64,000 bases of DNA. It comes from Escherichia coli (GTDB taxonomy: Bacteria; Pseudomonadota; Gammaproteobacteria; Enterobacterales; Enterobacteriaceae). The DNA lies in NCBI RefSeq assembly GCF_001677475.2, contig NZ_CP015229.1. One strand, 5' to 3'. A program made the translations under genes and the position numbers. The notes under the pieces were generated by a model. It was not told where the DNA came from. It saw only the letters and a list, made by a program, of their open reading frames with translations, and searched no databases. This document shows positions 348 through 19,020 of this stretch, piece after piece. Position 1 is the first letter of the stretch; the number at the start of each line of letters is the position of its first letter.

Positions 348-1778
348 ATGGCTGGGAATGTTCAGGAAAAACAGCTGCGATGGTACAACATTGCGCTGAT
401 GTCTTTTATCACTGTCTGGGGTTTTGGCAACGTTGTTAATAACTACGCCAACCAGGGGCTGGTGGTTGTTTTTTCATGGGTGTTTATCTTTGCGCTCTAT
501 TTCACACCTTATGCGCTAATTGTTGGCCAGTTAGGCTCGACCTTCAAAGATGGGAAGGGCGGGGTCAGTACCTGGATTAAACACACGATGGGACCCGGAC
601 TGGCTTACCTCGCCGCGTGGACCTACTGGGTAGTGCATATTCCCTATCTGGCACAAAAACCCCAGGCAATACTGATTGCGCTCGGTTGGGCGATGAAAGG
701 CGACGGTTCGCTAATCAAAGAATATTCAGTCGTAGCGTTACAGGGGTTAACGCTGGTGCTGTTTATCTTCTTTATGTGGGTTGCTTCACGCGGTATGAAA
801 TCGCTGAAAATCGTCGGTTCTGTGGCAGGGATTGCGATGTTTGTTATGTCGCTCCTGTATGTGGCGATGGCGGTAACCGCGCCTGCGATTACTGAAGTGC
901 ATATTGCGACCACAAACATTACCTGGGAAACGTTCATTCCTCATATCGACTTTACCTACATTACCACTATTTCAATGCTGGTTTTCGCGGTTGGCGGAGC
1001 AGAGAAGATTTCTCCTTACGTTAATCAAACGCGCAACCCAGGAAAAGAATTTCCAAAAGGGATGTTATGCCTGGCGGTGATGGTTGCGGTTTGTGCCATT
1101 CTGGGCTCACTGGCGATGGGGATGATGTTTGACTCGCGTAATATCCCGGATGACTTAATGACTAACGGTCAGTATTACGCCTTTCAGAAGCTGGGCGAGT
1201 ATTACAACATGGGTAATACTTTAATGGTGATTTATGCCATTGCGAATACCCTGGGACAAGTAGCTGCGCTGGTATTCTCGATTGATGCACCGCTTAAAGT
1301 GTTATTAGGCGATGCCGACAGCAAATATATTCCAGCAAGTTTATGTCGTACCAACGCTTCTGGTACGCCCGTTAATGGCTATTTTCTGACCCTGGTGCTG
1401 GTGGCGATCCTGATAATGCTACCGACTCTCGGCATTGGTGATATGAACAATCTCTATAAATGGCTGTTGAATCTTAACTCGGTAGTGATGCCGCTGCGTT
1501 ATTTGTGGGTATTTGTTGCGTTTATTGCTGTCGTTCGCCTGGCGCAGAAATATAAACCAGAGTATGTCTTTATTCGTAATAAGCCGATGGCAATGACCGT
1601 CGGGATATGGTGTTTTGCCTTTACCGCTTTTGCATGCCTGACAGGAATTTTCCCTAAAATGGAAGCCTTCATTGCAGAGTGGACATTCCAATTGGCACTG
1701 AACATTACTACGCCATTTGTCCTCGTTGGACTGGGGCTGATATTCCCGCTGCTTGCACGTAAAACGAATACAAAATAG
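348..1778 (+). CDS. ycaM: APC-family amino acid transporter YcaM (476 aa)
   Basis: ORF-track 156..1778; ATG at 348 preceded by AAGGA (336-340); multi-pass membrane protein starting MAGNVQEKQLRWYN. Confidence 0.9.
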   Translation: MAGNVQEKQLRWYNIALMSFITVWGFGNVVNNYANQGLVVVFSWVFIFALYFTPYALIVGQLGSTFKDGKGGVSTWIKHTMGPGLAYLAAWTYWVVHIPYLAQKPQAILIALGWAMKGDGSLIKEYSVVALQGLTLVLFIFFMWVASRGMKSLKIVGSVAGIAMFVMSLLYVAMAVTAPAITEVHIATTNITWETFIPHIDFTYITTISMLVFAVGGAEKISPYVNQTRNPGKEFPKGMLCLAVMVAVCAILGSLAMGMMFDSRNIPDDLMTNGQYYAFQKLGEYYNMGNTLMVIYAIANTLGQVAALVFSIDAPLKVLLGDADSKYIPASLCRTNASGTPVNGYFLTLVLVAILIMLPTLGIGDMNNLYKWLLNLNSVVMPLRYLWVFVAFIAVVRLAQKYKPEYVFIRNKPMAMTVGIWCFAFTAFACLTGIFPKMEAFIAEWTFQLALNITTPFVLVGLGLIFPLLARKTNTK

Positions 1779-1786
1779 TCATCATG

Positions 1787-1802
1787 CCCCGGTTCGCCGG
1801 GG
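1787..1802 (+). terminator. GC hairpin just after the ycaM stop (CCCCGG-TTCG-CCGGGG)
   Basis: Perfect 6-bp inverted repeat with a 4-nt loop read directly from the sequence; no strong T-run follows, so it may be only a stabilising hairpin. Confidence 0.35.
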
Positions 1803-2875
1803 CTGTGATATCAAATAGACTAAAATTAGATCAGGCCTGATAAGGCAAAAGTTAAGTTTTTCTTAAGAGATGAAAGAAAATCAACGCTACCGTGATAATA
1901 CGAATTTTAGTTATCGGAGACCATTATTTTTAGATATGGTGATAGTTTTAATTATTGGTTATTTTGCAAGTTATTATTTTGGGCTCTGGAGTAAACTCTT
2001 GCGCATAGTAATAACATGATTTTTACGGCTAAATTTTCAACAAAGATTGGTAATGTAAACTCGTATTTTTTGATTTGCATCAATGAATTCGCACGTTGCT
2101 AATTATGGTTAAATTTGCTGAGAATGATTGCGGTTATTGTTTGGATATGCAGATGGTATATTGATTCACTGGCGTAATATTCTGTAAAAATTATATTTTA
2201 TAGTGTTTTAATCTGGCAAAAATCATCTCCCGACAGAATCTTCTCATGCCTGGTGTAGTTCACAGTCTTTTGTTTTAAAAATAAAATAGTGCTCTAATGT
2301 TGCATCTATTGTTTTATCGAGCGTGTGTTCCTGAAAATATTTATCTGTTAGGTTGATGGACAAATTACAGCCTGGGCAGTGAAATTTTCACGATCACTTT
2401 CTGACTAAATCTTACTTTAAGGTTACTGATTAATATATTTGGGCTAAGAGAGTCGTATTACACATGTCTCAAAAAAGATAAATAAACAGAAAGGATTACT
2501 CACAATAGATACTAATAACACTTTTGGATAGTTATAGAGTAGAAGCCACGACTCAGCAGGATGTAGTAGCTGTGTTGTTATAAGTTAATTTTTTCATGGC
2601 TAAATTATTTCGTTGAAAAATTAACGAAAGGCGGTAGCGTGGGTGAAAGATACAAAATGAGTGTTACATATAACAATATTACCTTGGTTAAAATAGAATG
2701 AATGATAATCACCTGTGGAAATTAAGAAAAAAGTAATCTTCTCATCATGATATATTTTTTATATGGAATAGTGAAATTAATAAAATCATAAAGAGGAGAG
2801 CAACATCGTCTAATATACAGAACGTTATACGATATGATATGAAGCTATTAATAACATTTTAGTCAGAATACCAGT
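1803..2875 (+). promoter_or_regulatory. About 1.1 kb AT-rich ORF-free leader upstream of the five-gene module; presumed promoter and silencing region
   Basis: No ORF of 60 aa or more on either strand; very AT-rich with A/T tracts; directly upstream of a co-directional gene array. Promoter positions not resolved. Confidence 0.3.
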
Positions 2876-5224
2876 ATGTATAGCATTACCGAAAAATTAA
2901 ACTCAAGATTTAACACTGCGGTTATATTAGCTGTTACTGTCTATATTGTCTTGTCATTTATTACCGCAATTGATTTCCATAAAAAAATAGCAGAAAACTC
3001 TGCACAGATTAACCTTATACTCATCAATAACAATTTGAATAATTTTTTTTCTAAAGTTGAAAAAGAGGCTGATGCATTAAAAGATGCAATCTATCTGTTA
3101 CATGATGAAGATGAAATAAAGCGAGCAGTCCTTCATCGCATGAAAAAAATAGACGCGGTTAATTTAGTAGGGATAATGCTCAATAATGGAAAATATCTTA
3201 GCTTTATTCGAACTGAGAATGGGGAGGTAAAATTTCTGGGGCAATCAGAACCCGGTAAACCTTTTATTGGTGACGATGGTGATATCAGCGATAACTACTT
3301 TAATCCGGAATCACGCCCATGGAATAAATTACCGAGGGGGACTTATTCAAAATGGTCACCATGGTATAATTGTTATGGTATTGCCGGAAAAAAATGTTTT
3401 TCGTTTTCACTACGACCATCCGAAGAAGAAAAAAATTCATTTGCTTTGAAGTTAATACATCTGGATGTTGATGAAAAATATTTCAGTAATTTTTTAAATA
3501 AACTGGGTGGTGATTCTGATATTTTATTCATGGAACAAAACAAAAGGATTATGGTGGGTAATGAAAAATCAATGTTACATCTTATTGTCCGTGATTTATC
3601 GGGAAGTTATAACATAAGCAATAATAGTGGCAACTATACAGACAATGTTATCTCACTCCCCTGGCTTCCTGATGTCAGATTCCATTATTTCCACTATCAA
3701 AAATCAGAAGATACAAACATCAATAAATATTTTACACTGATGTTTTTATGTGGCTTGGTTTGTTTCTGTTTATTATGGTATATCGTTGAAAAAATAACAA
3801 GAAAAATCAAAGGTGAATCCAGCAAACTGATAGAACATCTGAAAAAATTAGCTAATTCAGTATATCGCAACGACACAATTGATATTGTGCAAAATGACAG
3901 TGGTGAGATTGTTGAACTCAAAAAGATCATTAATAATATCAGCGATAAATACAAGGAGCGTATGGACCGATTACTTAATCTTGTGTCCTATGAACAAGGA
4001 AGTTGCTTTTATATTAATAAGGCTATTATTGAAACTAATAATAAAACCTATTTGGCAATTGGTATGCTTTGCATCTATGGATTAGAGTTTGTTGAAGCGG
4101 TATATGGAAATCAGAAATTTCATGAGATTTTTAATGATATAAAATCTAAGATATCACAAAAATATTCAAAATATTGTGATATCGTAAAAATCTCAACTGA
4201 AACATACTTGTTGCTATGTCACACTGATTGCGAAGAGTTCATCGAAAAATTATCGGTTTTAAACTTTCCTGAACATATATTTTGCATAAGAAATATATAT
4301 ATCCACAAGATTGCCATTTGCGAAAATTTTTCAGGGGAAAATGTATCGATTTATGAAAGGAAACTGAAACTGGCATTAACAGCTATGCGGGAAAATAAAG
4401 AATCTGAATTTATTTTTTATGATGACATCAAAGTCCATGAACTTGATCAAAAGGTCTGGGTGGCAGGAAATATAAAAAAAGCGATTGCGAGTAATGAGCT
4501 TTATTTAGTATATCAACCGATTGTTGATATGGATAATAATAGGGTTGTAGGCGCAGAGGCGTTATGTCGCTGGTTGTCCTGCGAAAATGGGGTAATACCG
4601 CCATCAATTTTTGTACCTGTTGCTGAAGAAATAGGATTAATTAAAGAACTGGGTGATTTTGTTCTCGAAACAGCTATTAGCGAATTTGGGGTGTTTAGTT
4701 GTGAATATGAGGTTGCTAACGATTTTCTCCTGCATATCAATGTTTCTCCCTGGCAATTAAATGAATTTGACTTCCACACTCGTGTTCTTACTTTAATTAA
4801 TGCATTTGGTGTAAATGTTGAACAAATCTGCCTGGAGATCACCGAATCAGCAGTAAAAGATATAAATGATAGCTTTTACAATAATATAAATATTTTAAAA
4901 GAAAATGGTATCAAGATTTCCCTTGATGATTTCGGAAGTGGATTAGCTGACCTGAAAAAACTTTATAAAGTAAGACCTGATAGCATTAAAATTGATTCAG
5001 AGTTTACCTCTGGTATTTTCGATGAAACTAACAAGGTTGTATATTTTATATCCAATCTTGCTCGTGAAGAAAATATGCCGGTAATAGCTGAAGGTGTTGA
5101 AACTGAAAGTCAGGCTAGAGAGTTGCAAAAATTAGGATTTTCTCATGTTCAGGGATACTTATACCAGAAACCGTTACCGTTTTCAGAATGGCATATAGAC
5201 AACAAACCGAAAAAAAGAAAATAA
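2876..5224 (+). CDS. Membrane-anchored c-di-GMP phosphodiesterase: TM, periplasmic domain, TM, degenerate GGDEF-like linker, EAL domain (782 aa)
   Basis: EAL-domain signatures present: GAEALCRW, LEITES, DDFGSG, IKIDSEF, EGVETESQ, QGY. Two hydrophobic segments flank a ~250 aa region. No GGDEF/GGEEF motif in the linker. Confidence 0.8.
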   Translation: MYSITEKLNSRFNTAVILAVTVYIVLSFITAIDFHKKIAENSAQINLILINNNLNNFFSKVEKEADALKDAIYLLHDEDEIKRAVLHRMKKIDAVNLVGIMLNNGKYLSFIRTENGEVKFLGQSEPGKPFIGDDGDISDNYFNPESRPWNKLPRGTYSKWSPWYNCYGIAGKKCFSFSLRPSEEEKNSFALKLIHLDVDEKYFSNFLNKLGGDSDILFMEQNKRIMVGNEKSMLHLIVRDLSGSYNISNNSGNYTDNVISLPWLPDVRFHYFHYQKSEDTNINKYFTLMFLCGLVCFCLLWYIVEKITRKIKGESSKLIEHLKKLANSVYRNDTIDIVQNDSGEIVELKKIINNISDKYKERMDRLLNLVSYEQGSCFYINKAIIETNNKTYLAIGMLCIYGLEFVEAVYGNQKFHEIFNDIKSKISQKYSKYCDIVKISTETYLLLCHTDCEEFIEKLSVLNFPEHIFCIRNIYIHKIAICENFSGENVSIYERKLKLALTAMRENKESEFIFYDDIKVHELDQKVWVAGNIKKAIASNELYLVYQPIVDMDNNRVVGAEALCRWLSCENGVIPPSIFVPVAEEIGLIKELGDFVLETAISEFGVFSCEYEVANDFLLHINVSPWQLNEFDFHTRVLTLINAFGVNVEQICLEITESAVKDINDSFYNNINILKENGIKISLDDFGSGLADLKKLYKVRPDSIKIDSEFTSGIFDETNKVVYFISNLAREENMPVIAEGVETESQARELQKLGFSHVQGYLYQKPLPFSEWHIDNKPKKRK

Positions 5225-5228
5225 AGCA

Positions 5229-6569
5229 ATGTTCAAATATAAAAAAAAGGCGGCAGTGATCTGTTTTTTGTATTTTTTGTGCGTCGCTGTAGTAACTTGT
5301 TATTTGTACACCATTCATGTTAAAGGCCGTATAAATTCGGTGAAGGTATCTATTGTAGATAGTGGGCTTGCAATAGCTAATGTTTCTGAGTATCGCCGCT
5401 CAGTATCTAATAATATATTTTATGAACTTGAGGTTTCGCCAGAAGAGTTGTTAAAAAAAATACGCAATAGCTTTGCTGGCTATGAAAACCCTGGATATTT
5501 GTATGATCTCGGTCCTTATATGATTAGCGATGGTAAATGTATCAAAGTCACAACGAAAGGAGATAATTTTTGTGACGACATAGTTTCCTCTATTAGGGTA
5601 ATTAATGAATTTGAAAGAGGCATTATTAGCTTAAAAAATAAGTGCTATGTTTATTATGCTCATCCCATTGCAAAACGTACAAGTTTGATATCAGTGGTAG
5701 ATCCTGAACGTTATTTATCTTTGATAAGAAATCAATCAGGGGAACGAGAAGATATCTATGTATCATTTTATGATATTAATGATAATGAAAAGAAAATCGC
5801 AGGTGATGATTTTTTGATAAATGATGCAGTATTTGAGATGTCAGCTATCACTCTGTCGTATTCTTATCTTCCAGAAATGATGTTTATTGTTGCCTATAAA
5901 AAAAGTAAATATCTATATATATGTGCGTTTTTCGTTTTTGCATCGGCAATATCTGCAGTCATAATGTATGTTTATTATGTTAAATTATTGCGTGATATTA
6001 TAAATAAGGGTAGATTGGAAAAAGAATCTATATTGTCGAATCATCAATATGATTTACGTGGAGAAAATCTATTCTTTAATACGGAAGAGATTAATGCAAT
6101 TCGAGAGATATATGACTTTGGCACTTGTGATGCATTAACCAGGGCTTCTGGTCGCCGGAGTTTTGATAAAGAAATCAAGATACTGAGAAAAAATTTTGGC
6201 TACCTGTGTCTATTTGATGTGGATAAATTTAAAACCATTAATGATAAGTTTGGTCATTTATTTGGTGATGAAGTACTCATCAAACTTGTTAATATCATTA
6301 AAGAAGAGTTACCCCGTCGTGAAGGGGAAATATACCGGTTTGGCGGTGATGAGTTTGCTATTATTTATTATGAGAAAGATAAAAATAAGCTATCAAGAAT
6401 TTTGCACAGAGTTGTTCATTTCGCCATTGGTGGGTTAAATTGTAGTTGCAGTATAGGTGTTGCCAGCACAGATGAGTGCATGAATAACATTGAACGGTTG
6501 AAATTGCTGGCAGATGAACGGTTATATAAAAGTAAGCAAAATGGCCGAGCACAGATAACGTGGTGTTGA
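5229..6569 (+). CDS. Membrane diguanylate cyclase: TM, periplasmic domain, TM, GGDEF domain (446 aa)
   Basis: Intact GGDEF motifs: DALT, FDVDKFKTINDKFGH, GDEVL, RFGGDEF. Position -9 to -6 before GGDEF reads RREG rather than RxxD, so the inhibitory I-site looks degenerate. Four bp after the preceding gene. Confidence 0.85.
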   Translation: MFKYKKKAAVICFLYFLCVAVVTCYLYTIHVKGRINSVKVSIVDSGLAIANVSEYRRSVSNNIFYELEVSPEELLKKIRNSFAGYENPGYLYDLGPYMISDGKCIKVTTKGDNFCDDIVSSIRVINEFERGIISLKNKCYVYYAHPIAKRTSLISVVDPERYLSLIRNQSGEREDIYVSFYDINDNEKKIAGDDFLINDAVFEMSAITLSYSYLPEMMFIVAYKKSKYLYICAFFVFASAISAVIMYVYYVKLLRDIINKGRLEKESILSNHQYDLRGENLFFNTEEINAIREIYDFGTCDALTRASGRRSFDKEIKILRKNFGYLCLFDVDKFKTINDKFGHLFGDEVLIKLVNIIKEELPRREGEIYRFGGDEFAIIYYEKDKNKLSRILHRVVHFAIGGLNCSCSIGVASTDECMNNIERLKLLADERLYKSKQNGRAQITWC

Positions 6570-6653
6570 TATTTTAATTTGCATGGCATTGGTCATCGAT
6601 GTTTACAAAAATCACACAGTTCAAGTTATATTATTAATGAATCGTTAAGTGCA

Positions 6654-8768
6654 ATGCTCATAAAAAATAAAGTAATATTAAACAAAATCCTTTTGGTTGT
6701 TGCTATACTGCTATGTTTTGTTTTTTTATCAATTGTTGAACAGCCCCTTGGATTTTATCAACAAACATTATTTTCAATTATTATTTGTATCGCTGCTATC
6801 TTCCTTAATTTTCTCAAAGGAAGGATAATTACTCTGATTCTAATGGGTGTTGGAATACTCATATCATCCCGATATCTATGGTGGCGTTACTCTTCTTCAG
6901 TAATCCTGGATGAATTTCCAGACTGTTTATTTTCAGTCACGCTATTAGTTGCTGAGACGTATGCATGGTTTGTTTTATTACTTGGTTACTTTCAGGTTTG
7001 CTTCCCGCTGAACCGAGAAAGTATACCCTTACCAGAGAATAAAGAAGAATGGCCCGTTGTTGATATATTAATCCCCACATATAACGAACCCTTTACAGTC
7101 GTTAAGAATACAGTTTATGGTGCGTTGGCCTTAGACTGGCCAACGGATAAATTAAATATCTGGCTCCTTGATGATGGCGCCAGGGACGAGTTCAGGAAAT
7201 TCGCGAACGAGTTAGGTATTTACTATGTCGCAAGAGAAACACATGAACATGCTAAGGCCGGAAATATAAATAATGCGCTTAAAATAGCTAATGGCGAATT
7301 TGTTGCTATTTTCGATTGCGATCATATACCCTCGGTTTCTTTTTTAAAGAAAACGATGGGCTGGTTTATCGCCGATAAAAAATTATCGATGTTGCAAACA
7401 CCACATCATTTTTTTTCCCCCGACCCTTTTGAGCGAAATTTGGGGCAGTTTCGGCAAAAGCCAAATGAAGGACACCTTTTTTATGGGTTAATCCAGAATG
7501 GTACGGATACATGGAATGCTTCATTTTTTTGTGGTTCATGTGCAATCATCCGTAGATCTGCTCTGGATGAGGTTGGAGGCATTGCAGTCGAAACAGTAAC
7601 AGAAGATGCGCATACGTCGTTACGCTTGCATCGTGCAGGTTATAGCTCTGCGTATCTTCGCTATCCTCTGGCTGCCGGGCTAGCCACCGAAACATTGTCT
7701 GCTCATATTGGACAACGGATTCGGTGGGCTCGAGGCATGATTCAAATCTTGCGTATTGACAATCCATTATTGGGCAAGGGGCTGACATTATCACAGCGCC
7801 TTTGCTATCTCAGCAGCATGATGCATTTTTTATCAGGTGTGCCACGCCTGATTTTCTTGTTCGCACCGTTATGTCCTATTTTCTTTTCGGTCAATCTGAT
7901 CGATGCATCAGTTGCAGATATTATGTCTTATGTTTTACCTTATCTATTTGTTATTATTTTAACTAATTCAAGAGTACAAGGTAAATACAGACATTCATTC
8001 TGGAATGAGATTTATGAAATGGTTCTGGCCTGGTATATTACGCTACCAACGCTTGTAGCTTTACTTGCGCCAGCAAAAGGTCGTTTTAACGTTACGGCCA
8101 AAGGGGGACTGATAAAAAATAAGTTTGTTGACTGGCGAATTTCCTATCCCTATCTTATTTTTGCTATTTTAAATGTAATCGGGCTGATAATAGGTGTTAT
8201 TAATGTTTATAGTTTGCAAGGGCATATTGCCATCTTGAATTTGTTTTGTTTAATCTGGTTGTTTTATAACGCAATTATTATTGGCGCAACTTTGGCTGTT
8301 TCTATTGAACAAAAGCAGGTGCGTTTTTCTCCCCGTATTGATGTTTCTTTCAAGGGCGTTATACAACTGGATGATGGACGGCGCTATCCTTGTTCTGTTC
8401 TTGATTTTTCCGAAGGAGGATTAGGTGTAATCCTTGATAATATCTCCGACGTAAAAGATATGCTTAAAGCACAGCAATTGTCTCTTTATCTGGATGATAG
8501 CAACGGGAAATGTGATATTCCGGTAGAAATAGTTCATGCTTACAATAATAAAATTGGTCTGAAGATTATGCCAATGAGTTATGAACAAAGTGTTAATTAT
8601 GTAAGAGCAACGTTTTCTCGTGATTCATTATGGCAAGAGTGGAATAATAAAATTAGACGGGACAATATTCTAAAGAGTTTTTTTGAAATATGTTTCATCT
8701 CTCTGAAAGGTTATTGCAATATGGTTTTTTATATTCTGCGGACACTGAAAAGCAGTTCCAAAAGTTAG
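6654..8768 (+). CDS. BcsA-family processive beta-glycosyltransferase with C-terminal PilZ domain (cellulose-synthase-like catalytic subunit)
   Basis: N-terminal TM helices; GT2 motifs DILIPTYNEP, LLDDGARDEF, FDCDH, TEDAHTS, FFCGSCAIIRR, QRIRWARG; PilZ motifs RFSPR and DFSEGGLG. ORF-track frame opens at a TTG at 6579; ATG at 6654 chosen as start, uncertain. Confidence 0.82.
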   Translation: MLIKNKVILNKILLVVAILLCFVFLSIVEQPLGFYQQTLFSIIICIAAIFLNFLKGRIITLILMGVGILISSRYLWWRYSSSVILDEFPDCLFSVTLLVAETYAWFVLLLGYFQVCFPLNRESIPLPENKEEWPVVDILIPTYNEPFTVVKNTVYGALALDWPTDKLNIWLLDDGARDEFRKFANELGIYYVARETHEHAKAGNINNALKIANGEFVAIFDCDHIPSVSFLKKTMGWFIADKKLSMLQTPHHFFSPDPFERNLGQFRQKPNEGHLFYGLIQNGTDTWNASFFCGSCAIIRRSALDEVGGIAVETVTEDAHTSLRLHRAGYSSAYLRYPLAAGLATETLSAHIGQRIRWARGMIQILRIDNPLLGKGLTLSQRLCYLSSMMHFLSGVPRLIFLFAPLCPIFFSVNLIDASVADIMSYVLPYLFVIILTNSRVQGKYRHSFWNEIYEMVLAWYITLPTLVALLAPAKGRFNVTAKGGLIKNKFVDWRISYPYLIFAILNVIGLIIGVINVYSLQGHIAILNLFCLIWLFYNAIIIGATLAVSIEQKQVRFSPRIDVSFKGVIQLDDGRRYPCSVLDFSEGGLGVILDNISDVKDMLKAQQLSLYLDDSNGKCDIPVEIVHAYNNKIGLKIMPMSYEQSVNYVRATFSRDSLWQEWNNKIRRDNILKSFFEICFISLKGYCNMVFYILRTLKSSSKS

Positions 8769-8833
8769 TTCTAATTTCTGACTGCTAATTAAATATATTG
8801 TTTGTGTTTATTATGGTTGTTGAATTTTTTAAA

Positions 8834-11134
8834 ATGGAAAGAAAATTTTTGAGATTAAGTGCTGCGATAATTGGCTTGGGGTTATTATGTTTTTACCAGG
8901 CAAATACAGCATCGGCTACAGATACAGTAACCAGTAAGTCTTCCTCTGGAGAAGTATTACCATCTATCCAGAAGACAAATATCTCTGCTTATGAGAAAGA
9001 GTCGTCTCGCCATTTTAAACTCCCATTTACACAAATCGCACCAGCTCCAGGAAACATAGTCCTGAATGGCGTTAACCCACAGGGGCAAATTGAGTTTGGT
9101 ATGCGTAGCGATGAAATAGTATCAGAAGCAAAACTAAAACTTGAATACACTACATCACCGTCGCTGATCCCTGTCCAGTCACAGCTTAAGGTCTATCTTA
9201 ATGACGAGTTGATGGGGGTATTGCCGATTACCAAAGAACAACTGGGGAAGAAAACGCTGGCGGAAATAACTCTTAACCCATTGTATTTTTCTGATTTTAA
9301 TCGCTTGCGCCTCGAATTAATTAGTCACTACCAGAGCGCCTGTGAAAACCCGACCAGCAGCAATTTGTGGCTTGATATTGGACGTACCAGTGAACTTGAA
9401 CTGGTATTTCAGAGACTTAATCTGAAAAATGATCTTTCATATTTTCCTGTACCGTTTTTTGACCCGCGAGATAACCGCACTAATACATTGCCGATGGTTT
9501 TTGCAGGTACTCCTGAGACTGGTTTGCAGCAGGCATCAGCTATTGTCGCTTCGTGGTTTGGTGCGCAATCTGGCTGGCGTGGTCACCGATTTCCGGTTTT
9601 CTATAACCAGTTACCGGAAAGTAATGCAGTGGTCTTTGCCACTAACAATAGACGCCCGGACTTTCTGCGCGAGCATCCGTTGGTGAATGCGCCTGTTATT
9701 AAAATGATCAGTCATCCACAAAATCCTTTTATCAAATTGCTGGTACTTTTGGGCCGCGATGACAAAGATTTATTACAGGCGGCAAAAGGCCTTGCACAGG
9801 GAAATATACTTTTTCGCGGCGATAGTGTGATCGTAAATGAAGTGACGCCGTTACTGCCGCGTAAACCTTATGATGCGCCAAACTGGGTACGCACTGACCG
9901 TCCTGTAACTTTCGCAGAGCTTAAAAATTATGAAGGGCAGTTACAGGCAAGTGGCCTGGAGTCTGCGGCAATTAATGTTTCATTTAATTTGCCACCTGAT
10001 CTTTTTCTATTGCGTAATCGTGGGGTTGATATGAAGATTAACTATCGCTATACCACGCCAACGATAGGTGGTTCACGCATGGATGTCAGCCTTAATAACC
10101 AGTACCTTGAATCTTTCCGGCTAAGTCCGCAATCTGCTACCGATAGATTGTTGTTACGTTTACCGTTATTGCAAGAATTGTTGGATGGTAATAATGGAAT
10201 TACCATTCCTGCGCTGACGTTGGGGGCGCTTAATCAATTGCGATTTAATTTTGAGTACATTAATACAATGCCGCGTTCTGATGCTGATAGCTGTATTATT
10301 TCCAGGCCTCTAAAAAATCATGCGGTTATTGCAGATGATTCCACTATCGATTTTTCAAAGTACCATCACTTTATCGCAATGCCAGATTTACGCGCTTTTG
10401 CCAGCTCAGGCTTTCCATTTAGCCGCATGGCCGATCTATCAGAAACGGTTGTGGTTATGCCTGAAAATCCTGGTACAACGCAAGTTGAAACATTATTAAA
10501 TACCCTTGGACTGATTGGTGCTCAAACTGGATTTCCGGCAATTAATCTGACAATTACTGATGATATAGGTTCTGTCCAGGGTAAGGATTCAGATATTCTG
10601 CTTATAGGAACACTTCCGCAAGAATTTGCAGATAAACAGCAAATTAATCTGCTCATTGAGGCAACAACGAGTTGGGTAAAAAGCCCAATGCGGAACACTG
10701 ATTACGCAAAAATTATGGCAGATAAAAACGATCAAAAACCTGAAATACAAACAACTATAAATTCCCCATTGCCAATGGCGGCGATAGTTGGTTTTCAGTC
10801 CCCATATCATGCCCAACGTAGCGTAATTGCTTTAATGTCCGAGGGATCACGCGGCGATACGCTACTCAACAATGCGTTAATTAATAGTACAAAACGCGGC
10901 AATATTTTTGGTTCAGTCGCGGTTATTCGCGAATCTGGCGTCAATAGTTTACAGGTTGGAGATACTTATTACGTTGGGCATCTCCCCTGGATTGAACGAG
11001 TGCAATATGTGTTAGCCAGACACCCCATTCTACTGGCAGTCCTGGCAACTCTCAGTGTGGTGCTATTGGCGTGGGTAGTATGGCGTCTGTTACGTAACAT
11101 TAGTCGCCGTCGTCTGAACCCTCATCAACAGTAA
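8834..11134 (+). CDS. BcsB-like periplasmic subunit with signal peptide and C-terminal membrane anchor
   Basis: ORF-track 8798..11134 opens at a TTG; ATG at 8834 gives a classical signal peptide (MERKFLRLSAAIIGLGLLCFYQANTASA). About 770 aa with a C-terminal hydrophobic helix followed by RRRLNP, the typical BcsB size and topology. Confidence 0.8.
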   Translation: MERKFLRLSAAIIGLGLLCFYQANTASATDTVTSKSSSGEVLPSIQKTNISAYEKESSRHFKLPFTQIAPAPGNIVLNGVNPQGQIEFGMRSDEIVSEAKLKLEYTTSPSLIPVQSQLKVYLNDELMGVLPITKEQLGKKTLAEITLNPLYFSDFNRLRLELISHYQSACENPTSSNLWLDIGRTSELELVFQRLNLKNDLSYFPVPFFDPRDNRTNTLPMVFAGTPETGLQQASAIVASWFGAQSGWRGHRFPVFYNQLPESNAVVFATNNRRPDFLREHPLVNAPVIKMISHPQNPFIKLLVLLGRDDKDLLQAAKGLAQGNILFRGDSVIVNEVTPLLPRKPYDAPNWVRTDRPVTFAELKNYEGQLQASGLESAAINVSFNLPPDLFLLRNRGVDMKINYRYTTPTIGGSRMDVSLNNQYLESFRLSPQSATDRLLLRLPLLQELLDGNNGITIPALTLGALNQLRFNFEYINTMPRSDADSCIISRPLKNHAVIADDSTIDFSKYHHFIAMPDLRAFASSGFPFSRMADLSETVVVMPENPGTTQVETLLNTLGLIGAQTGFPAINLTITDDIGSVQGKDSDILLIGTLPQEFADKQQINLLIEATTSWVKSPMRNTDYAKIMADKNDQKPEIQTTINSPLPMAAIVGFQSPYHAQRSVIALMSEGSRGDTLLNNALINSTKRGNIFGSVAVIRESGVNSLQVGDTYYVGHLPWIERVQYVLARHPILLAVLATLSVVLLAWVVWRLLRNISRRRLNPHQQ

Positions 11135-11246
11135 TTCATCATCATTTCTATTTTGCGGCTCCATTCTGTCCTGACTTTATACAGGCAGGGAGCTGCGCCC
11201 GTTCTGTTTTTAATAAAAAGTGAGTTAACACCTGATTGAGGCAGGC

Positions 11247-14200
11247 ATGTACAAATTCACCCTAAATTTACTCACAATATCCCTTGGTTTGGCGGTAATG
11301 TCGATGGCGAAAGCCACACCAACTGTACACAAGCTGTTAATGGCGCAGATTCGGTTAGGCGAAGACATTCATCGTGAAGATCTGGTCGAACAGTCGCTTT
11401 ATCGTCTTGAATTGGCGGAACCTGATAATCCAGATGTCGTTGCGGCGCGTTTTCGCTATCTGCTGCGTAAGGGGGATATTGAAGGTGCGCAAAAACAACT
11501 TGCCAGACTTTCCCTGTTCGCTCCTGATTCAAAAATATATAAAGCATCGCGCACGGCCATGCGACTTTCTTCGCCTGAGGGGCGTCAGGCACTGCAAATG
11601 GCACGCTTACAAGCTATCTCCGGGCGACATAAAGAGGCTATCGACAGTTACGACAAGCTATTTAACGGGGCACCGCCAGATATCGAAATGGCGCTGGAAT
11701 ACTGGGGGGCAATGACGCAAATTTCCTCCCGTCGCAACGAAGCGATTCGTCAGTTGAAAATACTTAATATTGATAATCCTGACTCTGGTGCCATATTTGG
11801 GGCGCTGGGGCAGGCGTATTCCCAGAATGGCGATCGCGCTAATGCGGTGGCGAATCTGGAAAAAGCCCTCGCACTGGATCCGCACAGCAGCAACAACGAC
11901 AAATGGAACAGTCTGCTGAAGGTGAATCGCTACTGGCTGGCGATCCAGCAGGGCGATGCTGCGCTGAAAGCCAATAATCCTGACCGCGCAGAGCGTCTGT
12001 TCCAGCAGGCGCGCAATGTCGATAACGCCGACAGCTATGCGGTGCTGGGGCTGGGCGATGTGGCGATGGCGCGCAAAGATTACCCCGCCGCCGAACGTTA
12101 TTATCAGCAGACGCTGCGTATGGACAGCGGCAACACCAACGCCGTGCGCGGGCTGGCGAATCTTTATCGCCAGCAGTCGCCGGAAAAAGCCGAAGCGTTT
12201 ATTGCCTCGCTCTCTGCCAGCCAGCGGCGCAGCGTTGATGACATCGAACGCAGCCTGCAAAACACGCGTTTATCACAGCAGGCAGAGGCACTGGAAAATC
12301 AGGGTAAATGGGCGCAGGCGGCAGCACTTCAGCGCCAGCGACTGGCGCTCGATCCCGGCAGTGTGTGGATTACTTACCGGCTTTCGCAGGATCTCTGGCA
12401 GGCCGGACAACGCAGCCAGGCCGATACGTTAATGCGCCATCTGGCGCAGCAGAAGCCGAACGACCCGGAGCAGGTTTACGCTTACGGGCTGTATCTCTCT
12501 GGTCATGACCAGGACAGAGCGGCGCTGGCGCATATCAACAGCCTGCCGCGCGCGCAATGGAACAGCAATATTCAGGAGCTGGTTAATCGACTGCAAAGCG
12601 ATCAGGTGCTGGAAACCGCTAATCGCCTGCGAGAAAGCGGCAAAGAAGCTGAAGCGGAAGCGATGCTGCGCCAACAACCACCTTCCACGCGTATTGATCT
12701 CACGCTGGCTGACTGGGCGCAACAACGACGTGATTATACCGCCGCCCGCGCTGCATATCAGAATGTCCTGATGCGGGAGCCAACTAACGCCGATGCCATT
12801 CTTGGTCTGACGGAAGTGGATATTGCTGCCGGTGACAAAGCGGCAGCACGTAGCCAGCTGGCGAAACTGCCTGCCACCGATAACGCGTCGCTGAACACTC
12901 AGCGGCGCGTGGCGCTGGCACAGGCGCAGCTTGGCGATACCGCAGCGGCGCAGCAGACGTTTAATAAGTTGATCCCGCAGGCAAAATCTCAGCCGCCGTC
13001 GATGGAAAGCGCGATGGTGCTGCGCGACGGTGCGAAGTTTGAAGCGCAGGCGGGCGATCCAAAGCAGGCGCTGGAAACCTACAAAGACGCCATGGTCGCA
13101 TCCGGTGTGACTACGACGCGTCCGCAGGATAACGACACCTTTACCCGACTGACCCGTAACGATGAGAAAGATGACTGGCTGAAGCGCGGTGTGCGCAGCG
13201 ACGCGGCAGATCTCTATCGTCAGCAGGATCTTAACGTCACCCTTGAGCACGACTACTGGGGATCGAGTGGCACCGGTGGTTACTCCGACCTGAAAGCGCA
13301 CACTACCATGTTGCAGGTGGATGCTCCGTATTCTGACGGGAGGATGTTCTTTCGCAGTGATTTCGTCAATATGAACGTCGGCAGTTTCTCCACTAATGCC
13401 GATGGCAAATGGGATGACAACTGGGGCACCTGTACATTACAGGACTGTAGTGGCAACCGCAGCCAGTCGGACTCCGGTGCCAGCGTGGCGGTCGGCTGGC
13501 GAAATGACGTCTGGAGCTGGGATATCGGTACCACGCCGATGGGCTTCAACGTGGTGGATGTGGTCGGCGGCATCAGTTACAGCGATGATATCGGGCCGCT
13601 GGGTTACACCGTTAACGCCCACCGTCGGCCCATCTCCAGTTCTTTGCTGGCCTTTGGTGGGCAAAAAGACTCTCCGGGCAATACCGGGAAAAAATGGGGT
13701 GGCGTGCGTGCCGACGGCGTGGGGCTAAGCCTGAGCTACGATAAAGGTGAAGCAAACGGCGTCTGGGCATCGCTTAGCGGTGACCAGTTAACCGGTAAAA
13801 ATGTCGAAGATAACTGGCGCGTGCGCTGGATGACGGGCTATTACTATAAGGTCATTAACCAGAACAATCGCCGCGTCACAATCGGCCTGAACAACATGAT
13901 CTGGCATTACGACAAAGATCTGAGTGGCTACTCACTCGGTCAGGGCGGTTACTACAGTCCGCAGGAATACCTGTCGTTTGCCATACCGGTGATGTGGCGG
14001 GAGCGCACGGAAAACTGGTCGTGGGAGCTGGGTGCATCTGGCTCGTGGTCGCATTCGCGCACCAAAACCATGCCGCGTTATCCGCTGATGAACCTGATCC
14101 CGACGGACTGGAAAGAGGATGCCGCCAGCCAGACCAACGACGGCGGCAGCAGTCAGGGCTTTGGCTACACGGCGCGGGCGTTACTTGAGCGTCGCGTCAC

Positions 14201-14354
14201 GTCCAACTGGTTTGTCGGCACGGCGATTGATATCCAGCAGGCGAAAGATTATGCGCCAAGCCATTTCCTGCTCTACGTGCGGTATTCCGCCGCCGGATGG
14301 CAGGGCGACATGGATTTACCGCCGCAGCCGCTGATACCTTACGCCGACTGGTAA
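11247..14354 (+). CDS. BcsC-like export component: signal peptide, TPR repeats, C-terminal outer-membrane beta-barrel (1035 aa)
   Basis: Signal peptide MYKFTLNLLTISLGLAVMSMAKA; TPR-like repeats; Gly/Tyr/Trp-rich C-terminal region ending in aromatic residues; GAGG before the ATG. GC and codon usage change abruptly near 11.8 kb. Confidence 0.8.
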   Translation: MYKFTLNLLTISLGLAVMSMAKATPTVHKLLMAQIRLGEDIHREDLVEQSLYRLELAEPDNPDVVAARFRYLLRKGDIEGAQKQLARLSLFAPDSKIYKASRTAMRLSSPEGRQALQMARLQAISGRHKEAIDSYDKLFNGAPPDIEMALEYWGAMTQISSRRNEAIRQLKILNIDNPDSGAIFGALGQAYSQNGDRANAVANLEKALALDPHSSNNDKWNSLLKVNRYWLAIQQGDAALKANNPDRAERLFQQARNVDNADSYAVLGLGDVAMARKDYPAAERYYQQTLRMDSGNTNAVRGLANLYRQQSPEKAEAFIASLSASQRRSVDDIERSLQNTRLSQQAEALENQGKWAQAAALQRQRLALDPGSVWITYRLSQDLWQAGQRSQADTLMRHLAQQKPNDPEQVYAYGLYLSGHDQDRAALAHINSLPRAQWNSNIQELVNRLQSDQVLETANRLRESGKEAEAEAMLRQQPPSTRIDLTLADWAQQRRDYTAARAAYQNVLMREPTNADAILGLTEVDIAAGDKAAARSQLAKLPATDNASLNTQRRVALAQAQLGDTAAAQQTFNKLIPQAKSQPPSMESAMVLRDGAKFEAQAGDPKQALETYKDAMVASGVTTTRPQDNDTFTRLTRNDEKDDWLKRGVRSDAADLYRQQDLNVTLEHDYWGSSGTGGYSDLKAHTTMLQVDAPYSDGRMFFRSDFVNMNVGSFSTNADGKWDDNWGTCTLQDCSGNRSQSDSGASVAVGWRNDVWSWDIGTTPMGFNVVDVVGGISYSDDIGPLGYTVNAHRRPISSSLLAFGGQKDSPGNTGKKWGGVRADGVGLSLSYDKGEANGVWASLSGDQLTGKNVEDNWRVRWMTGYYYKVINQNNRRVTIGLNNMIWHYDKDLSGYSLGQGGYYSPQEYLSFAIPVMWRERTENWSWELGASGSWSHSRTKTMPRYPLMNLIPTDWKEDAASQTNDGGSSQGFGYTARALLERRVTSNWFVGTAIDIQQAKDYAPSHFLLYVRYSAAGWQGDMDLPPQPLIPYADW

Positions 14355-14395
14355 TGAGGTAGAATCAGAAGGTTAAAACTCGGAAATTAAATCCA

Positions 14396-14438
14396 GTAAA
14401 TCAGCGTCGAGCATGTTCTTAACGCTGATTTACTTTTT
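14396..14438. terminator. Hairpin plus T-run between the convergent BcsC-like gene and pflA
   Basis: GTAAATCAGCGT … ACGCTGATTTAC inverted repeat followed by TTTTT, read directly. Confidence 0.5.
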
Positions 14439-14488
14439 ACTACTAAAGGAAGGGGTGGCAGGTCGGAATTCAGCCTGCACATGATGTT

Positions 14489-15229
14489 TTAGAACATCAC
14501 TTTATGACCATATTGCTCAAGAATCCCTTTCACTCGCTCCATGGTTTCTTTTTTCGGTGGTTTCACACCGTCGAGTTTGTACTCTTCGCCCATCGCCACC
14601 CACTTATGTTTGCCTAACTCATGGTAGGGGAGGAGCTCGATTTTTTCGACGTTACCCATATCGCGAGTAAATTCACCGAGGCGATGAGCTGAATCGTCAT
14701 CGTCAGACCAGCCAGGTACTACGACATAACGTATCCAGACTTTCACATTTTTGTTCGCCAGATATTTAGCAAACTCGAGTGTACGATGGTTGGAAACGCC
14801 TACCAGATTCTGGTGGATTTCGTCGTTCATCTGTTTGAGATCGAGCATTACCAGGTCGGTCACTTCCAGAAGTTCATCAATTACTGGATCGTAACGACGA
14901 ACAAAACCGTTAGTGTCCAGACAGGTATGAATGCCTTCTTTTTTGCAGGCGCGGAACCAGTCGCGAACGAACTCGGCTTGCAGGATTGCTTCACCACCGG
15001 ATGCGGTAACGCCGCCGCCGGAAGCGTTCATAAAGTGGCGATAGGTCACCACTTCCTTCATTAAATCTTCAACGGTAACTTCTTTACCGCCATGCGTATC
15101 CCAGGTGTCGCGGTTATGACAATACAGGCAGCGCATCAGGCAGCCCTGGAAAAAGGTGATAAAGCGAATACCCGGGCCGTCTACGGTTCCACAGGATTCA
15201 AAGGAGTGAATGCGACCAATAACTGACAT
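14489..15229 (-). CDS. pflA: Pyruvate formate-lyase activating enzyme (radical SAM)
   Basis: Protein [20 protein letters not shown] … [10 protein letters not shown] … YGHKVMF; ORF-track frame extends 9 codons upstream, start set at the conserved Met. Confidence 0.95.
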
Positions 15230-15420
15230 TGCGGTGTTTCTCCAGATGTGGCCCATCTGAGGCCGTGTTGGTGCGCAGCTCGAAGGCTACGTCGAGTCTG
15301 TTTTGGCAGTCACCTTAAAGTATAGATAGCTGACAAAAAAGGCTCTCGTGCTAAAAAAGGCCCCACTTTCGTGGAGCCTTTATTGTACGCTTTTTACTGT
15401 ACGATTTCAGTCAAATCTAA

Positions 15421-17703
<2,283 letters not shown>

Positions 17704-17757
17704 GTAACACCTACCTTCTTAAGTGGATTTTTTATTTACTGCGTACTTCGACAACCA

Positions 17758-18615
17758 TTAATGGTGATCGTTTTCACGCAGGTAAATGACCCAGTATGTC
17801 AACCCAACCAACAAACCACCGCCGATAATATTACCGATCGTAACCGGAATCAGGTTATCAGTGATGAAGTTCATCACGGTCAGGTGAGAAAAATTTTCCG
17901 GTGCAGAACCGACAGCGGTCCAGAATTCCGGAGATGCGAAGTCGCGGATTACAATACCCATCGGGATCATAAACATGTTTGCGATACTGTGCTCAAAACC
18001 GCTGGCAACAAACATCGCGACCGGCAGCACCATGATAAACGCTTTGTCCATCAGGCTGCGGCCAGAATAGCTCATCCATACTGCCAGGCATACCATCAGG
18101 TTAGCCAGGATACCGAGGCAGACAGCCTCAATAAAAGTATGGTGTACTTTGTGGTCGGCGGTTTGTAGGACGTTTAGTCCCCATTGACCATTTGCGGTCA
18201 TATACTCGCCGGAAAGCCACATTAAAAGTACAAACAGCAGTGCGCCGACCAGGTTGCCAAAATAGACATTTAGCCAGTTTTTAGCCAACTGACCCCAGGT
18301 GATGCGCCCACTCGCCTTAGCAACAACAATCAACACTGTGGAAGTAAAGAGATCGGCTCCGCAGACAACACAAAGAATCAGCCCCAGAGAGAAGCAAATG
18401 CCGCCAACCAGTTTTGCCATGCCGAAGGGCATTGTGCCTGTGCCAGTGGTTGCTGTGATATAGAAGACGAATGCGATTGAGATGAAAACACCGGCGGTAA
18501 TCGCCAGATAGAAAGTCTTAAGCGGATGTTTCGTTGCTTTATAGACACCTGCCTCTTCGGCCACTTTGGCCATTGCTGCAGGAAGTAAAAGATCAAAAGG
18601 GTTGTCAGCTTTCAC
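17758..18615 (-). CDS. focA: Formate channel FocA (285 aa from a GTG start)
   Basis: ORF-track 17758..18789; conserved protein begins at VKADNPFDLLLP, matching a GTG at 18613-18615 on the minus strand. Confidence 0.88.
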   Translation of the reverse strand: MKADNPFDLLLPAAMAKVAEEAGVYKATKHPLKTFYLAITAGVFISIAFVFYITATTGTGTMPFGMAKLVGGICFSLGLILCVVCGADLFTSTVLIVVAKASGRITWGQLAKNWLNVYFGNLVGALLFVLLMWLSGEYMTANGQWGLNVLQTADHKVHHTFIEAVCLGILANLMVCLAVWMSYSGRSLMDKAFIMVLPVAMFVASGFEHSIANMFMIPMGIVIRDFASPEFWTAVGSAPENFSHLTVMNFITDNLIPVTIGNIIGGGLLVGLTYWVIYLRENDHH

Positions 18616-19020
18616 ACTAACTCTCTCTTTATTAAGTCGGCGACGAGATACTAACAAAGCATTATAGATGAGAAATTGATATAGATCATATCTCGCCTGG
18701 CTTATAGGCCCGTAACTCGCATGGTTTTTATGCAAATACGGAGTAAATATTTGATTATCCAAATAAAAATAAATTTTAAAAATTAACAAATGAGTTGAAT
18801 TTTTTCCGCATCCTCCGCTAAAACAGTTAATTAAAAGGGAGCATCAGACAAATAAAGCAACAATATCGATCGTATTTATTAAATACAAATTACCGATATT
18901 TAACTTTATAATTACAATTATTTTATTAATGCAAATATATGTAAAGCGGGGCATTAAAAAAACGCCCCGTAATATAACTCAGACGAATCATTAAGCCTAC
19001 ATTGCGTAGGCTATTTGATT
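18616..19020 (-). promoter_or_regulatory. focA–pflB upstream control region with an FNR-like site
   Basis: AT-rich 400 bp upstream of focA; TTGAT-ATAG-ATCAT at 18676-18689 resembles the FNR consensus TTGAT-N4-ATCAA. Established that focA-pflB is FNR/ArcA controlled; this site assignment is inference. Confidence 0.4.

Follow-up and report, generated by a model that had tools for sequence, protein, structure and literature searches.

A probable type 3 accessory bcs cluster between ycaM and pflA of Escherichia coli and its hybrid bcsC

What is a second set of cellulose synthase genes doing between ycaM and pflA in an Escherichia coli chromosome, and how independent is it of the core bcs operon? 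We examined a 64,000-nucleotide stretch of E. coli contig NZ_CP015229.1 (hereafter the window), in which positions 1779-14488 form a 12.7-kb block that is not present in K-12, where ycaN-ycaK occupies the same interval. The block carries five open reading frames (ORFs), all on the + strand at 2876-14354 and bounded by ycaM and pflA, encoding an EAL-domain protein, a GGDEF-domain protein, BcsA, BcsB and BcsC. Their features assign this module, with good confidence, to the type 3 (BcsA3) class of accessory bcs clusters, as an allele alternative to ycaN-ycaK at ycaM-pflA. What is apparently new is that most of its bcsC is core-derived and still exchanging with the core gene.

The synthase genes and the class of the cluster

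The third gene, bcsA (6654-8768, +), encodes a GT2 glycosyltransferase with a C-terminal PilZ domain. Its frame is open from a TTG at 6579, which gives 729 amino acids (aa); the ATG used by the NCBI annotation in strain N3 gives 704 aa. The protein passed two curated NCBIfam models, scoring 844 against TIGR03030 (cut-off 699) and, by a narrow margin, 1012 against NF008558 (cut-off 992), and Pfam detected GT2 families together with PilZ (1.2e-10, residues 555-646). The catalytic motifs DDG, DCD, TED, QRIRW, FFCGS and HAKAGN all align with those of E. coli BcsA1, and both PilZ motifs that bind cyclic di-GMP (c-di-GMP), RxxxR (RFSPR) and DxSxxG (DFSEGG), are present. The catalytic signature, the PilZ motifs and the equivalog scores thus argue for a genuine BcsA. 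Compared with core BcsA1, 362 identities give 52% over the aligned part, or 41.5% when all 872 aa are counted; the alignment spans BcsA1 residues 150-836, and both the N-terminal residues 1-149 and the C-terminal extension are missing.

The next gene, bcsB (8834-11134, +), encodes the periplasmic partner of BcsA in 766 aa (778 aa from a start at 8798). Its product matched NF008325 over residues 1-765 of 766 with a score of 1189 (cut-off 922) and is 65% identical to core BcsB, with whose hydrophobic C-terminus its own aligns. The full-length match above the cut-off and the C-terminal membrane anchor point to a BcsB. In the original prediction, made from the bare sequence, the five genes had been described as co-directional with gaps of 4-112 nucleotides (nt), and as encoding EAL, GGDEF, GT2 plus PilZ, BcsB-like and BcsC-like proteins. 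With the annotated starts the gaps are 4, 84, 65 and 112 nt, and the Pfam and NCBIfam profiles bear out every domain call. The ORF content also agrees with its statement on missing genes, as no bcsR, bcsQ, bcsZ, bcsE, bcsF or bcsG was found among the ORFs of 1779-14488.

These absences set the module apart from the core class IIa cluster of E. coli and Salmonella, bcsRQABZC-bcsEFG, which makes phosphoethanolamine-cellulose. Both have a c-di-GMP-gated BcsA-BcsB pair and a BcsC porin. However, the module lacks bcsEFG, bcsR, bcsQ, bcsZ and the BcsG-recruiting N-terminal domain of BcsA, lies at a different chromosomal site and has its own adjacent GGDEF/EAL pair, whereas the regulators of the core cluster (DgcC, DgcQ) are distant.

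Accessory bcs clusters have been classified in a 2025 preprint from the Römling lab (Hosseinpourlamardi et al., bioRxiv 10.1101/2025.05.09.653004). There, BcsA2 clusters are mostly plasmid-borne, BcsA3 clusters are chromosomal and consist of bcsABC only, and BcsA4 clusters are Klebsiella-like; BcsA2-BcsA4 lack the 150 N-terminal residues of BcsA1, and BcsA2 and BcsA3 are confined to Escherichia, with type 3 occurring in E. marmotae too. In the same study, YliE-like (PdeI) and YliF-like (DgcI) genes commonly adjoin the chromosomal clusters. The module has the corresponding features: the 41.5% identity to BcsA1, the missing N- and C-terminal extensions, a chromosomal bcsABC and YliE/YliF-like neighbours. 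It is on these features, rather than on direct identity to the preprint's reference proteins WP_000576412.1 and WP_309491259.1, that the BcsA3 assignment rests. The window is the same in kind as the type 3 clusters, and its module is 97.8% identical to that of strain E69 and about 95% identical to that of N3. The novelty initially claimed for the locus was not upheld, since the class is described in the preprint and NCBI annotation already labels the module genes (EAL/CHASE9, GGDEF, bcsA, bcsB, bcsC) in N3, E7-1N7 and others. The preprint does not, however, name the ycaM-pflA site or report a bcsC of which five-sixths is core-derived and exchanging; the strings 'pflA', 'ycaM', 'chimer' and 'recombin' are all absent from its main text.

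A search of 5.8 billion proteins returned only three 90% clusters closer than 56% to the window's BcsA, namely one from E. coli (89%), one from E. marmotae (89%) and the plasmid BcsA2 (73%); the others were enterobacterial BcsA1 proteins at 52-56%. No BcsA copy above 80% was found in a plasmid search, the best being BcsA2 at 73%. No donor outside Escherichia was found: only Escherichia clusters exceeded 56%, plasmids reached 73% at most and the GTDB representatives gave E69 alone. Enterobacterial bcs genes also occur in records labelled Microbacterium barkeri (a 532-bp contig), Chryseobacterium sp. 18061 and Vagococcus sp. WN89Y (L083, L060 and P0021), probably because these assemblies are contaminated or mislabelled.

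The plasmid type 2 clusters (BcsA2; p13QT4 and S56 plasmid A) likewise have a short BcsA, a BcsB and a BcsC, often with EAL/GGDEF genes nearby. They differ in lying on IncF/IncHI1B/p0111-type plasmids, in carrying a group II intron and IS200 between bcsB and bcsC, and in having a whole core-like bcsC of 1157 aa, 97.7% identical to an E. coli core allele, rather than a hybrid. The order in S56 plasmid A (record L003, 7705-18627) and p13QT4 (record L085, 9001-19922) is bcsA2, bcsB2 (716 aa), the ltrA group II intron and bcsC; in S56 plasmid A an IS200/IS605 tnpA and a 126-nt bcsZ remnant precede bcsC, and the upstream EAL/GGDEF genes are fragmented. Judging from the intron, the bcsZ remnant and the core-like bcsC, the type 2 plasmid bcsC was apparently picked up from the core operon of a chromosome.

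Might the polymer be a mixed-linkage glucan, say, or one modified in another way, and not plain cellulose? BcsA3 shares just 52% identity with the characterised BcsA of enterobacteria and barely passed NF008558 (1012 versus 992), and some annotated cellulose synthases may be mixed-linkage glucan synthases according to the preprint (10.1101/2025.05.09.653004). However, all of the nearest relatives are cellulose synthases, both curated BcsA models were passed, a bona fide BcsB and BcsC stand alongside, and the block holds no modifying-enzyme gene. We therefore regard a different polymer as highly unlikely. Unmodified cellulose has been suggested as the product of bcsABC-only clusters (10.1101/2025.05.09.653004).

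Hybrid structure of bcsC and its exchange with the core gene

The last gene of the module, bcsC (11247-14354, +; 3108 nt), encodes 1035 aa, compared with 1157 aa in the core, and its product scored 1892 against NF008520 (cut-off 858). A five-way alignment divided it into two parts. The module-native 5' part (11247-11798, +) encodes the signal peptide and the first four tetratricopeptide repeats (TPR#1-4), the BcsB-docking end; over these first ~550 nt the identity to core bcsC is 65-75%, and residues 1-184 are colinear with core residues 1-184 at roughly 60% identity. Thereafter 366 nt (122 codons) of core bcsC have no counterpart, and the gene joins in frame to a core-like 3' part (11799-14354, +) that encodes the remaining TPRs and the outer-membrane β-barrel. 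The last 2556 nt of the module alleles are 88-99% identical to core bcsC in the five-way alignment. Consistently, a megablast of window 11799-14354 hit core bcsC in thousands of E. coli genomes at ~95% (95.3% nt), and residues 185-1035 align with core residues 307-1157 at 97% aa identity.

The 122 missing residues (core ~181-302) correspond to about three TPRs, the full BcsC architecture being 19 TPRs and a 16-strand outer-membrane barrel. The crossover joins two TPR units at equivalent spots (…NPDS-GA(I/L)…GALGQAY), which preserves the register of the repeats. In E. coli BcsC, TPR#1-4 comprise residues 21-179, and the N-terminal TPR#1 docks in a groove of the terminal BcsB (PMC11379886). The bcsC of the module is thus a hybrid in which only the BcsB-docking TPR#1-4 region is module-specific and the other five-sixths is core-derived. 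The initial view that the locus is not a copy of the canonical bcs locus accordingly holds for BcsA (52%) and BcsB (65%) but not for bcsC, in which 2556 of the 3108 nt are 95% core-identical.

Neither the junction nor the 366-nt gap varies among the alleles examined (window, N3 and E7-1N7). In its 5' part, the window's bcsC shares 99% identity with the module alleles of N3 and E69, and 86-88% with those of E7 and E. marmotae. An assembly artefact was rejected as the source of the hybrid, because the same in-frame structure is common to nine closed genomes and E69; the two bcsC copies of E69 are moreover 98.2%, not 100%, identical.

To compare module and core copies within one genome, we used E69 ('E. 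coli', CP089930.1), which carries both the module (record L012) and an intact core bcsABZC (record L014). It was found by a scan of GTDB species representatives and was the sole module carrier among those returned; the within-genome comparison is that of this one strain. The core bcsC of the window's genome falls beyond the stretch. From the EAL gene through bcsB, the modules of the window and E69 are 99.2% identical; the figure is 99.3% for the 5' part of bcsC and falls to 94.8% for its 3' part. The 3' part of the E69 module, by comparison, is 98.2% identical to E69's own core bcsC. At the 133 sites that differ between the two module copies, the E69 core agrees with the E69 module at 114 and with the window at 17; the core allele of E. 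coli strain Santai sides with the window at 98 of these sites and with E69 at 30. Scanned in 200-nt windows, the window copy is E69-like at 11799-12398 and 13999-14354 and E. coli-core-like at ~12400-13998. The 3' part of the window's bcsC is therefore a mosaic of E69-like and E. coli-core-like stretches.

In a neighbour-joining tree of the 3' part, the module copies form no single clade: the N3 copy falls with E. coli core alleles, the E69 copy with the E69 core and the E7-1N7 copy with the core bcsC of E. albertii (93.4%). Additionally, four contigs from E. marmotae and metagenomes all end 27-220 nt past the bcsC junction, where short-read assemblers would break because core bcsC is a near-identical repeat. 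Together, the drop from 99.2% to 94.8%, the 114 versus 17 sites, the tree and the contig breaks indicate that a single founding fusion was followed by repeated sequence exchange with the core gene, either through ectopic gene conversion or through recombination with incoming alleles of core bcsC.

The same data might be read as a single ancient fusion that has evolved independently ever since, or as an artefact of assembly, with no ongoing exchange. That the junction and the gap are the same in all alleles does indicate that the fusion itself occurred once, and the module copy matches no core allele fully, its best match among 5426 complete E. coli genomes being 95.8%. Independent evolution is nonetheless hard to square with a fall in window-E69 identity exactly at the core-like part, with the excess of sites favouring E69's own core gene, or with module copies that interleave in the tree with core alleles of different Escherichia lineages; the nine closed genomes and the non-identical E69 copies speak against the artefact. 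We consider this alternative quite unlikely.

It counts against the proposal of repeated exchange as applied here that the exchange partner in the window's genome is deduced from E69 and E. coli core alleles; transfer may have run either way between core and module. We found no relevant work on bcsC gene conversion in the literature collection searched. Between the window and N3, the synonymous divergence (dS) of the bcsC 5' part is 0.02, compared with 0.11-0.20 in the other four genes, which indicates recombination breakpoints inside the module-native part as well.

Chromosomal site, composition and distribution of the module

Alignment to K-12 fixed the borders of the block. Homology stops at 1777, at the end of ycaM, and restarts at 14489, the stop codon of pflA; from one stop codon to the other, the block swaps ycaN-ycaK exactly. 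No match to YcaN or YcaK, and no remnant of either, was detected by tblastn across the whole window. The left flank, ycaM (348-1778, +), encodes an APC-family permease and is 95.8% identical to K-12 and ~99% identical to N3. On the right, pflA (14489-15256, −) is convergent to bcsC, and the flank from 14489 to 19149 is 97.5% identical to K-12. At the left end of the block, immediately past the stop codon of ycaM, the sequence reads as a G+C-rich hairpin (GCCCCGG-TTCG-CCGGGGC; 1786-1803, +). Between the convergent bcsC and pflA, a terminator-like hairpin is followed by a T-run (14395-14439, +), with a fold energy of −19.8 kcal/mol (z = −5.0) that none of 200 shuffled sequences equalled.

The first 1.1 kb of the block (1779-2875) is a non-coding leader whose longest ORF is 49 aa, which corrects the initial description. 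The G+C content (GC) rises along the block, from 31.7% in the leader to 32.7% in the EAL gene, 33.4% in the GGDEF gene, 38.1% in bcsA and 43.3% in bcsB; in bcsC it is 47.8% over the first 552 nt and 58.6%, above the flanks (47-51%), over the other 2556 nt. The composition of the block is a GC gradient and not that of a uniform island. The 30-35% GC first proposed for the first three genes is right for the 5' part only, and of the rare codons then listed (ATA, AGA, CTA and TTA), ATA, AGA and TTA are over-used in the first four genes.

As to how the block arrived, we found no tRNA gene and no integrase or transposase ORF or annotation in it, and neither direct nor inverted repeats at its borders. 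Thus the replacement of ycaN-ycaK and the lack of mobility genes, both anticipated in the original prediction, are confirmed. With none of these marks of an island inserted by site-specific recombination or transposition, an origin as a mobile element was rejected. No Rfam family reached threshold in the block, the 1.1-kb leader included, and a structured RNA or riboswitch in the leader was rejected on this ground. Promoter-like sites in 1779-2875 were no commoner than in shuffled sequences, so none was assigned. The leader presumably holds the promoter and regulatory region, and it is a likely target of H-NS-type silencing. Between module lineages it is only 73-75% identical, compared with ~85% for the coding part.

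The whole block was found by megablast in 9 of the 5426 complete E. coli genomes, always at ycaM-pflA, and it is also present in E69. This BLAST comparison, which had been proposed with the original prediction, confirmed the site. In contigs from E. marmotae and metagenomes (records L007-L010), the module directly follows ycaD, and the equivalent of window 430-1812, nearly all of ycaM, is missing. The K-12 ycaN-ycaK segment (record L005, 4661-6340) was matched in 5044 of the 5426 genomes and covered to at least 80% in only 3323, so the ycaM-pflA junction is variable, or unstable, in general. The top ycaN-ycaK matches carry IS1 or IS903 insertions.

The flanks of the window, N3 and E7-1N7 are ~99% identical, while the window's module is 93-96% identical to that of N3 and 81-88% identical to that of E7-1N7. 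Three deep module lineages can be distinguished: window/E69/N3, E7-1N7 with the carrier in record L011, and E. marmotae. They diverge by ~15% in coding DNA and by 25-27% in the leader. As mobility genes are missing and the flanks are ~99% alike while the modules differ by 15%, homologous recombination through the conserved flanks is the most likely way for the module to pass from one Escherichia lineage to another. The best match to window 15000-39000 among the complete E. coli genomes is only 98.3%, and the module carrier nearest to the window, E69, represents a GTDB species of its own; a divergent E. coli-like lineage is the probable source of the window. To the right of the block, a 750-aa ORF at 15430-17682 (+), antisense to pflB (15421-17703, −), is almost certainly a shadow ORF of this highly expressed, codon-biased gene.

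Is the module in use, or is it silenced foreign DNA that is decaying and happens to be intact in the window? The 5' genes (32-38% GC) and the AT-rich 1.1-kb leader are typical of H-NS-silenced DNA, the module is rare (9 of 5426 genomes), and some copies are broken. Between lineages, however, the ratio of nonsynonymous to synonymous divergence (dN/dS) of all five genes is 0.06-0.15 at a dS of 0.5-0.75 (0.09 for the EAL gene against the E7 allele and 0.10-0.13 for the GGDEF gene). All catalytic motifs are kept, and the window, N3, E7-1N7 and E69 each carry the five genes undamaged. Such dN/dS values over such a dS show that the module is maintained by long-term purifying selection, and we consider functionless DNA an unlikely explanation.

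The c-di-GMP enzymes and the predicted export pathway

The first gene of the module (2876-5224, +) encodes a PdeI/YliE-like membrane sensor of 782 aa, with a CHASE9 domain, a transmembrane/HAMP region, a degenerate GGDEF domain and an EAL domain. Pfam detected the periplasmic CHASE9 (7e-42) and EAL (8.5e-65), and the EAL-domain catalytic motifs EAL, NVSP, EITE, DDFGSG, KID, EGVE and QGY are all present, a combination that argues for a PdeI/YliE-type protein. Over its full length it is 40% identical to K-12 PdeI (YliE), which is also 782 aa long. The second gene (5229-6569, +) encodes a DgcI/YliF-like diguanylate cyclase of 446 aa, 42% identical to K-12 DgcI (YliF), with a periplasmic GAPES2 domain (5.5e-41) and a GGDEF domain (1.8e-24) whose RFGGDEF motif is intact; no RxxD I-site was found in it. 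GAPES2 and the intact motif together suggest a DgcI/YliF-type enzyme. The GGDEF gene starts 4 nt past the EAL gene, in the arrangement of pdeI-dgcI (yliE-yliF) in K-12. The two pairs are alike in gene order, domain architectures and lengths (module/K-12, 782/782 and 446/442 aa). They differ in GC (33% in the module, 42-44% in K-12) and in setting, the K-12 pair not being beside any polysaccharide synthase.

These features suggest the following pathway. The CHASE9-EAL and GAPES2-GGDEF proteins, as membrane sensors with periplasmic inputs, would set a probably local c-di-GMP level; binding of c-di-GMP to the PilZ domain of the short BcsA3 would release its auto-inhibition. BcsA3, with the membrane-anchored BcsB3, would then polymerise UDP-glucose to a β-1,4-glucan and push the chain across the inner membrane, and the hybrid BcsC would take it through the periplasm and the outer membrane. 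The product is predicted to be unmodified, unlike the phosphoethanolamine-modified cellulose of the core system, because the block has no bcsG and BcsA3 lacks the BcsG-recruiting extensions; in core BcsA it is the N- and C-terminal domains that recruit the phosphoethanolamine transferase BcsG (PMC11379886). Most likely, then, the module would make unmodified cellulose under c-di-GMP control.

Two terms of the original prediction fit this scheme poorly. 'Self-contained' is doubtful, as the module has no BcsZ, the hydrolase on whose activity secretion depends in E. coli (PMC11379886); BcsZ would probably be supplied from the core locus. The c-di-GMP 'source and sink' was an assumption. The sink role of the EAL protein appears uncertain, because K-12 PdeI, its closest studied paralogue (40%), raised c-di-GMP when overexpressed (PMC11651652).

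Several observations weigh against the functional scheme as a whole. The polymer, the activities of both c-di-GMP enzymes and the expression of the operon are inferred from sequence features, and the AT-rich block may be silenced. The only cluster tested experimentally in the preprint is a plasmid-borne type 4 cluster, not one of type 3 (10.1101/2025.05.09.653004). Overexpressed K-12 PdeI raised c-di-GMP ~11-fold (PMC11651652); G412, the glycine mutated in that study, is kept in the window's EAL protein. Broken copies of the module are frequent. In SCU-172 (record L086, 7806-10904), IS1A lies ~680 nt into bcsB and splits the gene. Three more E. coli carriers show the same two-piece match over an equal span, and GF43 has a larger insertion of about 1.3 kb. 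In the E. marmotae contigs the pdeI-like gene carries a 1-nt frameshift (record L007, ~4745-5166) and is called as 709 aa or as 462+231 aa.

The gene cluster in itself adds little, as its class is in the preprint and its genes are annotated automatically; the window offers one more allele. What novelty remains lies in the hybrid, exchanging bcsC, in the precise position on the chromosome and in the evidence that purifying selection has acted over the long term. The site is now fixed: the cluster takes the place of ycaN-ycaK, as an alternative allele between ycaM and pflA, in E. coli as well as in E. marmotae. Purifying selection in three deep lineages argues that this second cellulose system is used and is not junk. 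The hybrid, exchanging bcsC explains why draft assemblies break inside bcsC. It is also a caution that BcsC trees are an unsafe guide to where such clusters came from; in the preprint, BcsC trees agree with BcsA trees (10.1101/2025.05.09.653004).

Finally, the hybrid bcsC offers a hypothesis on which part of BcsC confers partner specificity. Tentatively, and at slightly less than even weight, we propose that it is a natural domain swap marking the specificity determinant of cellulose export: TPR#1-4 would have to match the divergent BcsB3, while the rest would be interchangeable and homogenised with the core gene by recurrent ectopic gene conversion. The two systems would then share one evolving export module and keep separate synthase docking, c-di-GMP inputs and polymer chemistry, plain cellulose in one and phosphoethanolamine-modified cellulose in the other.

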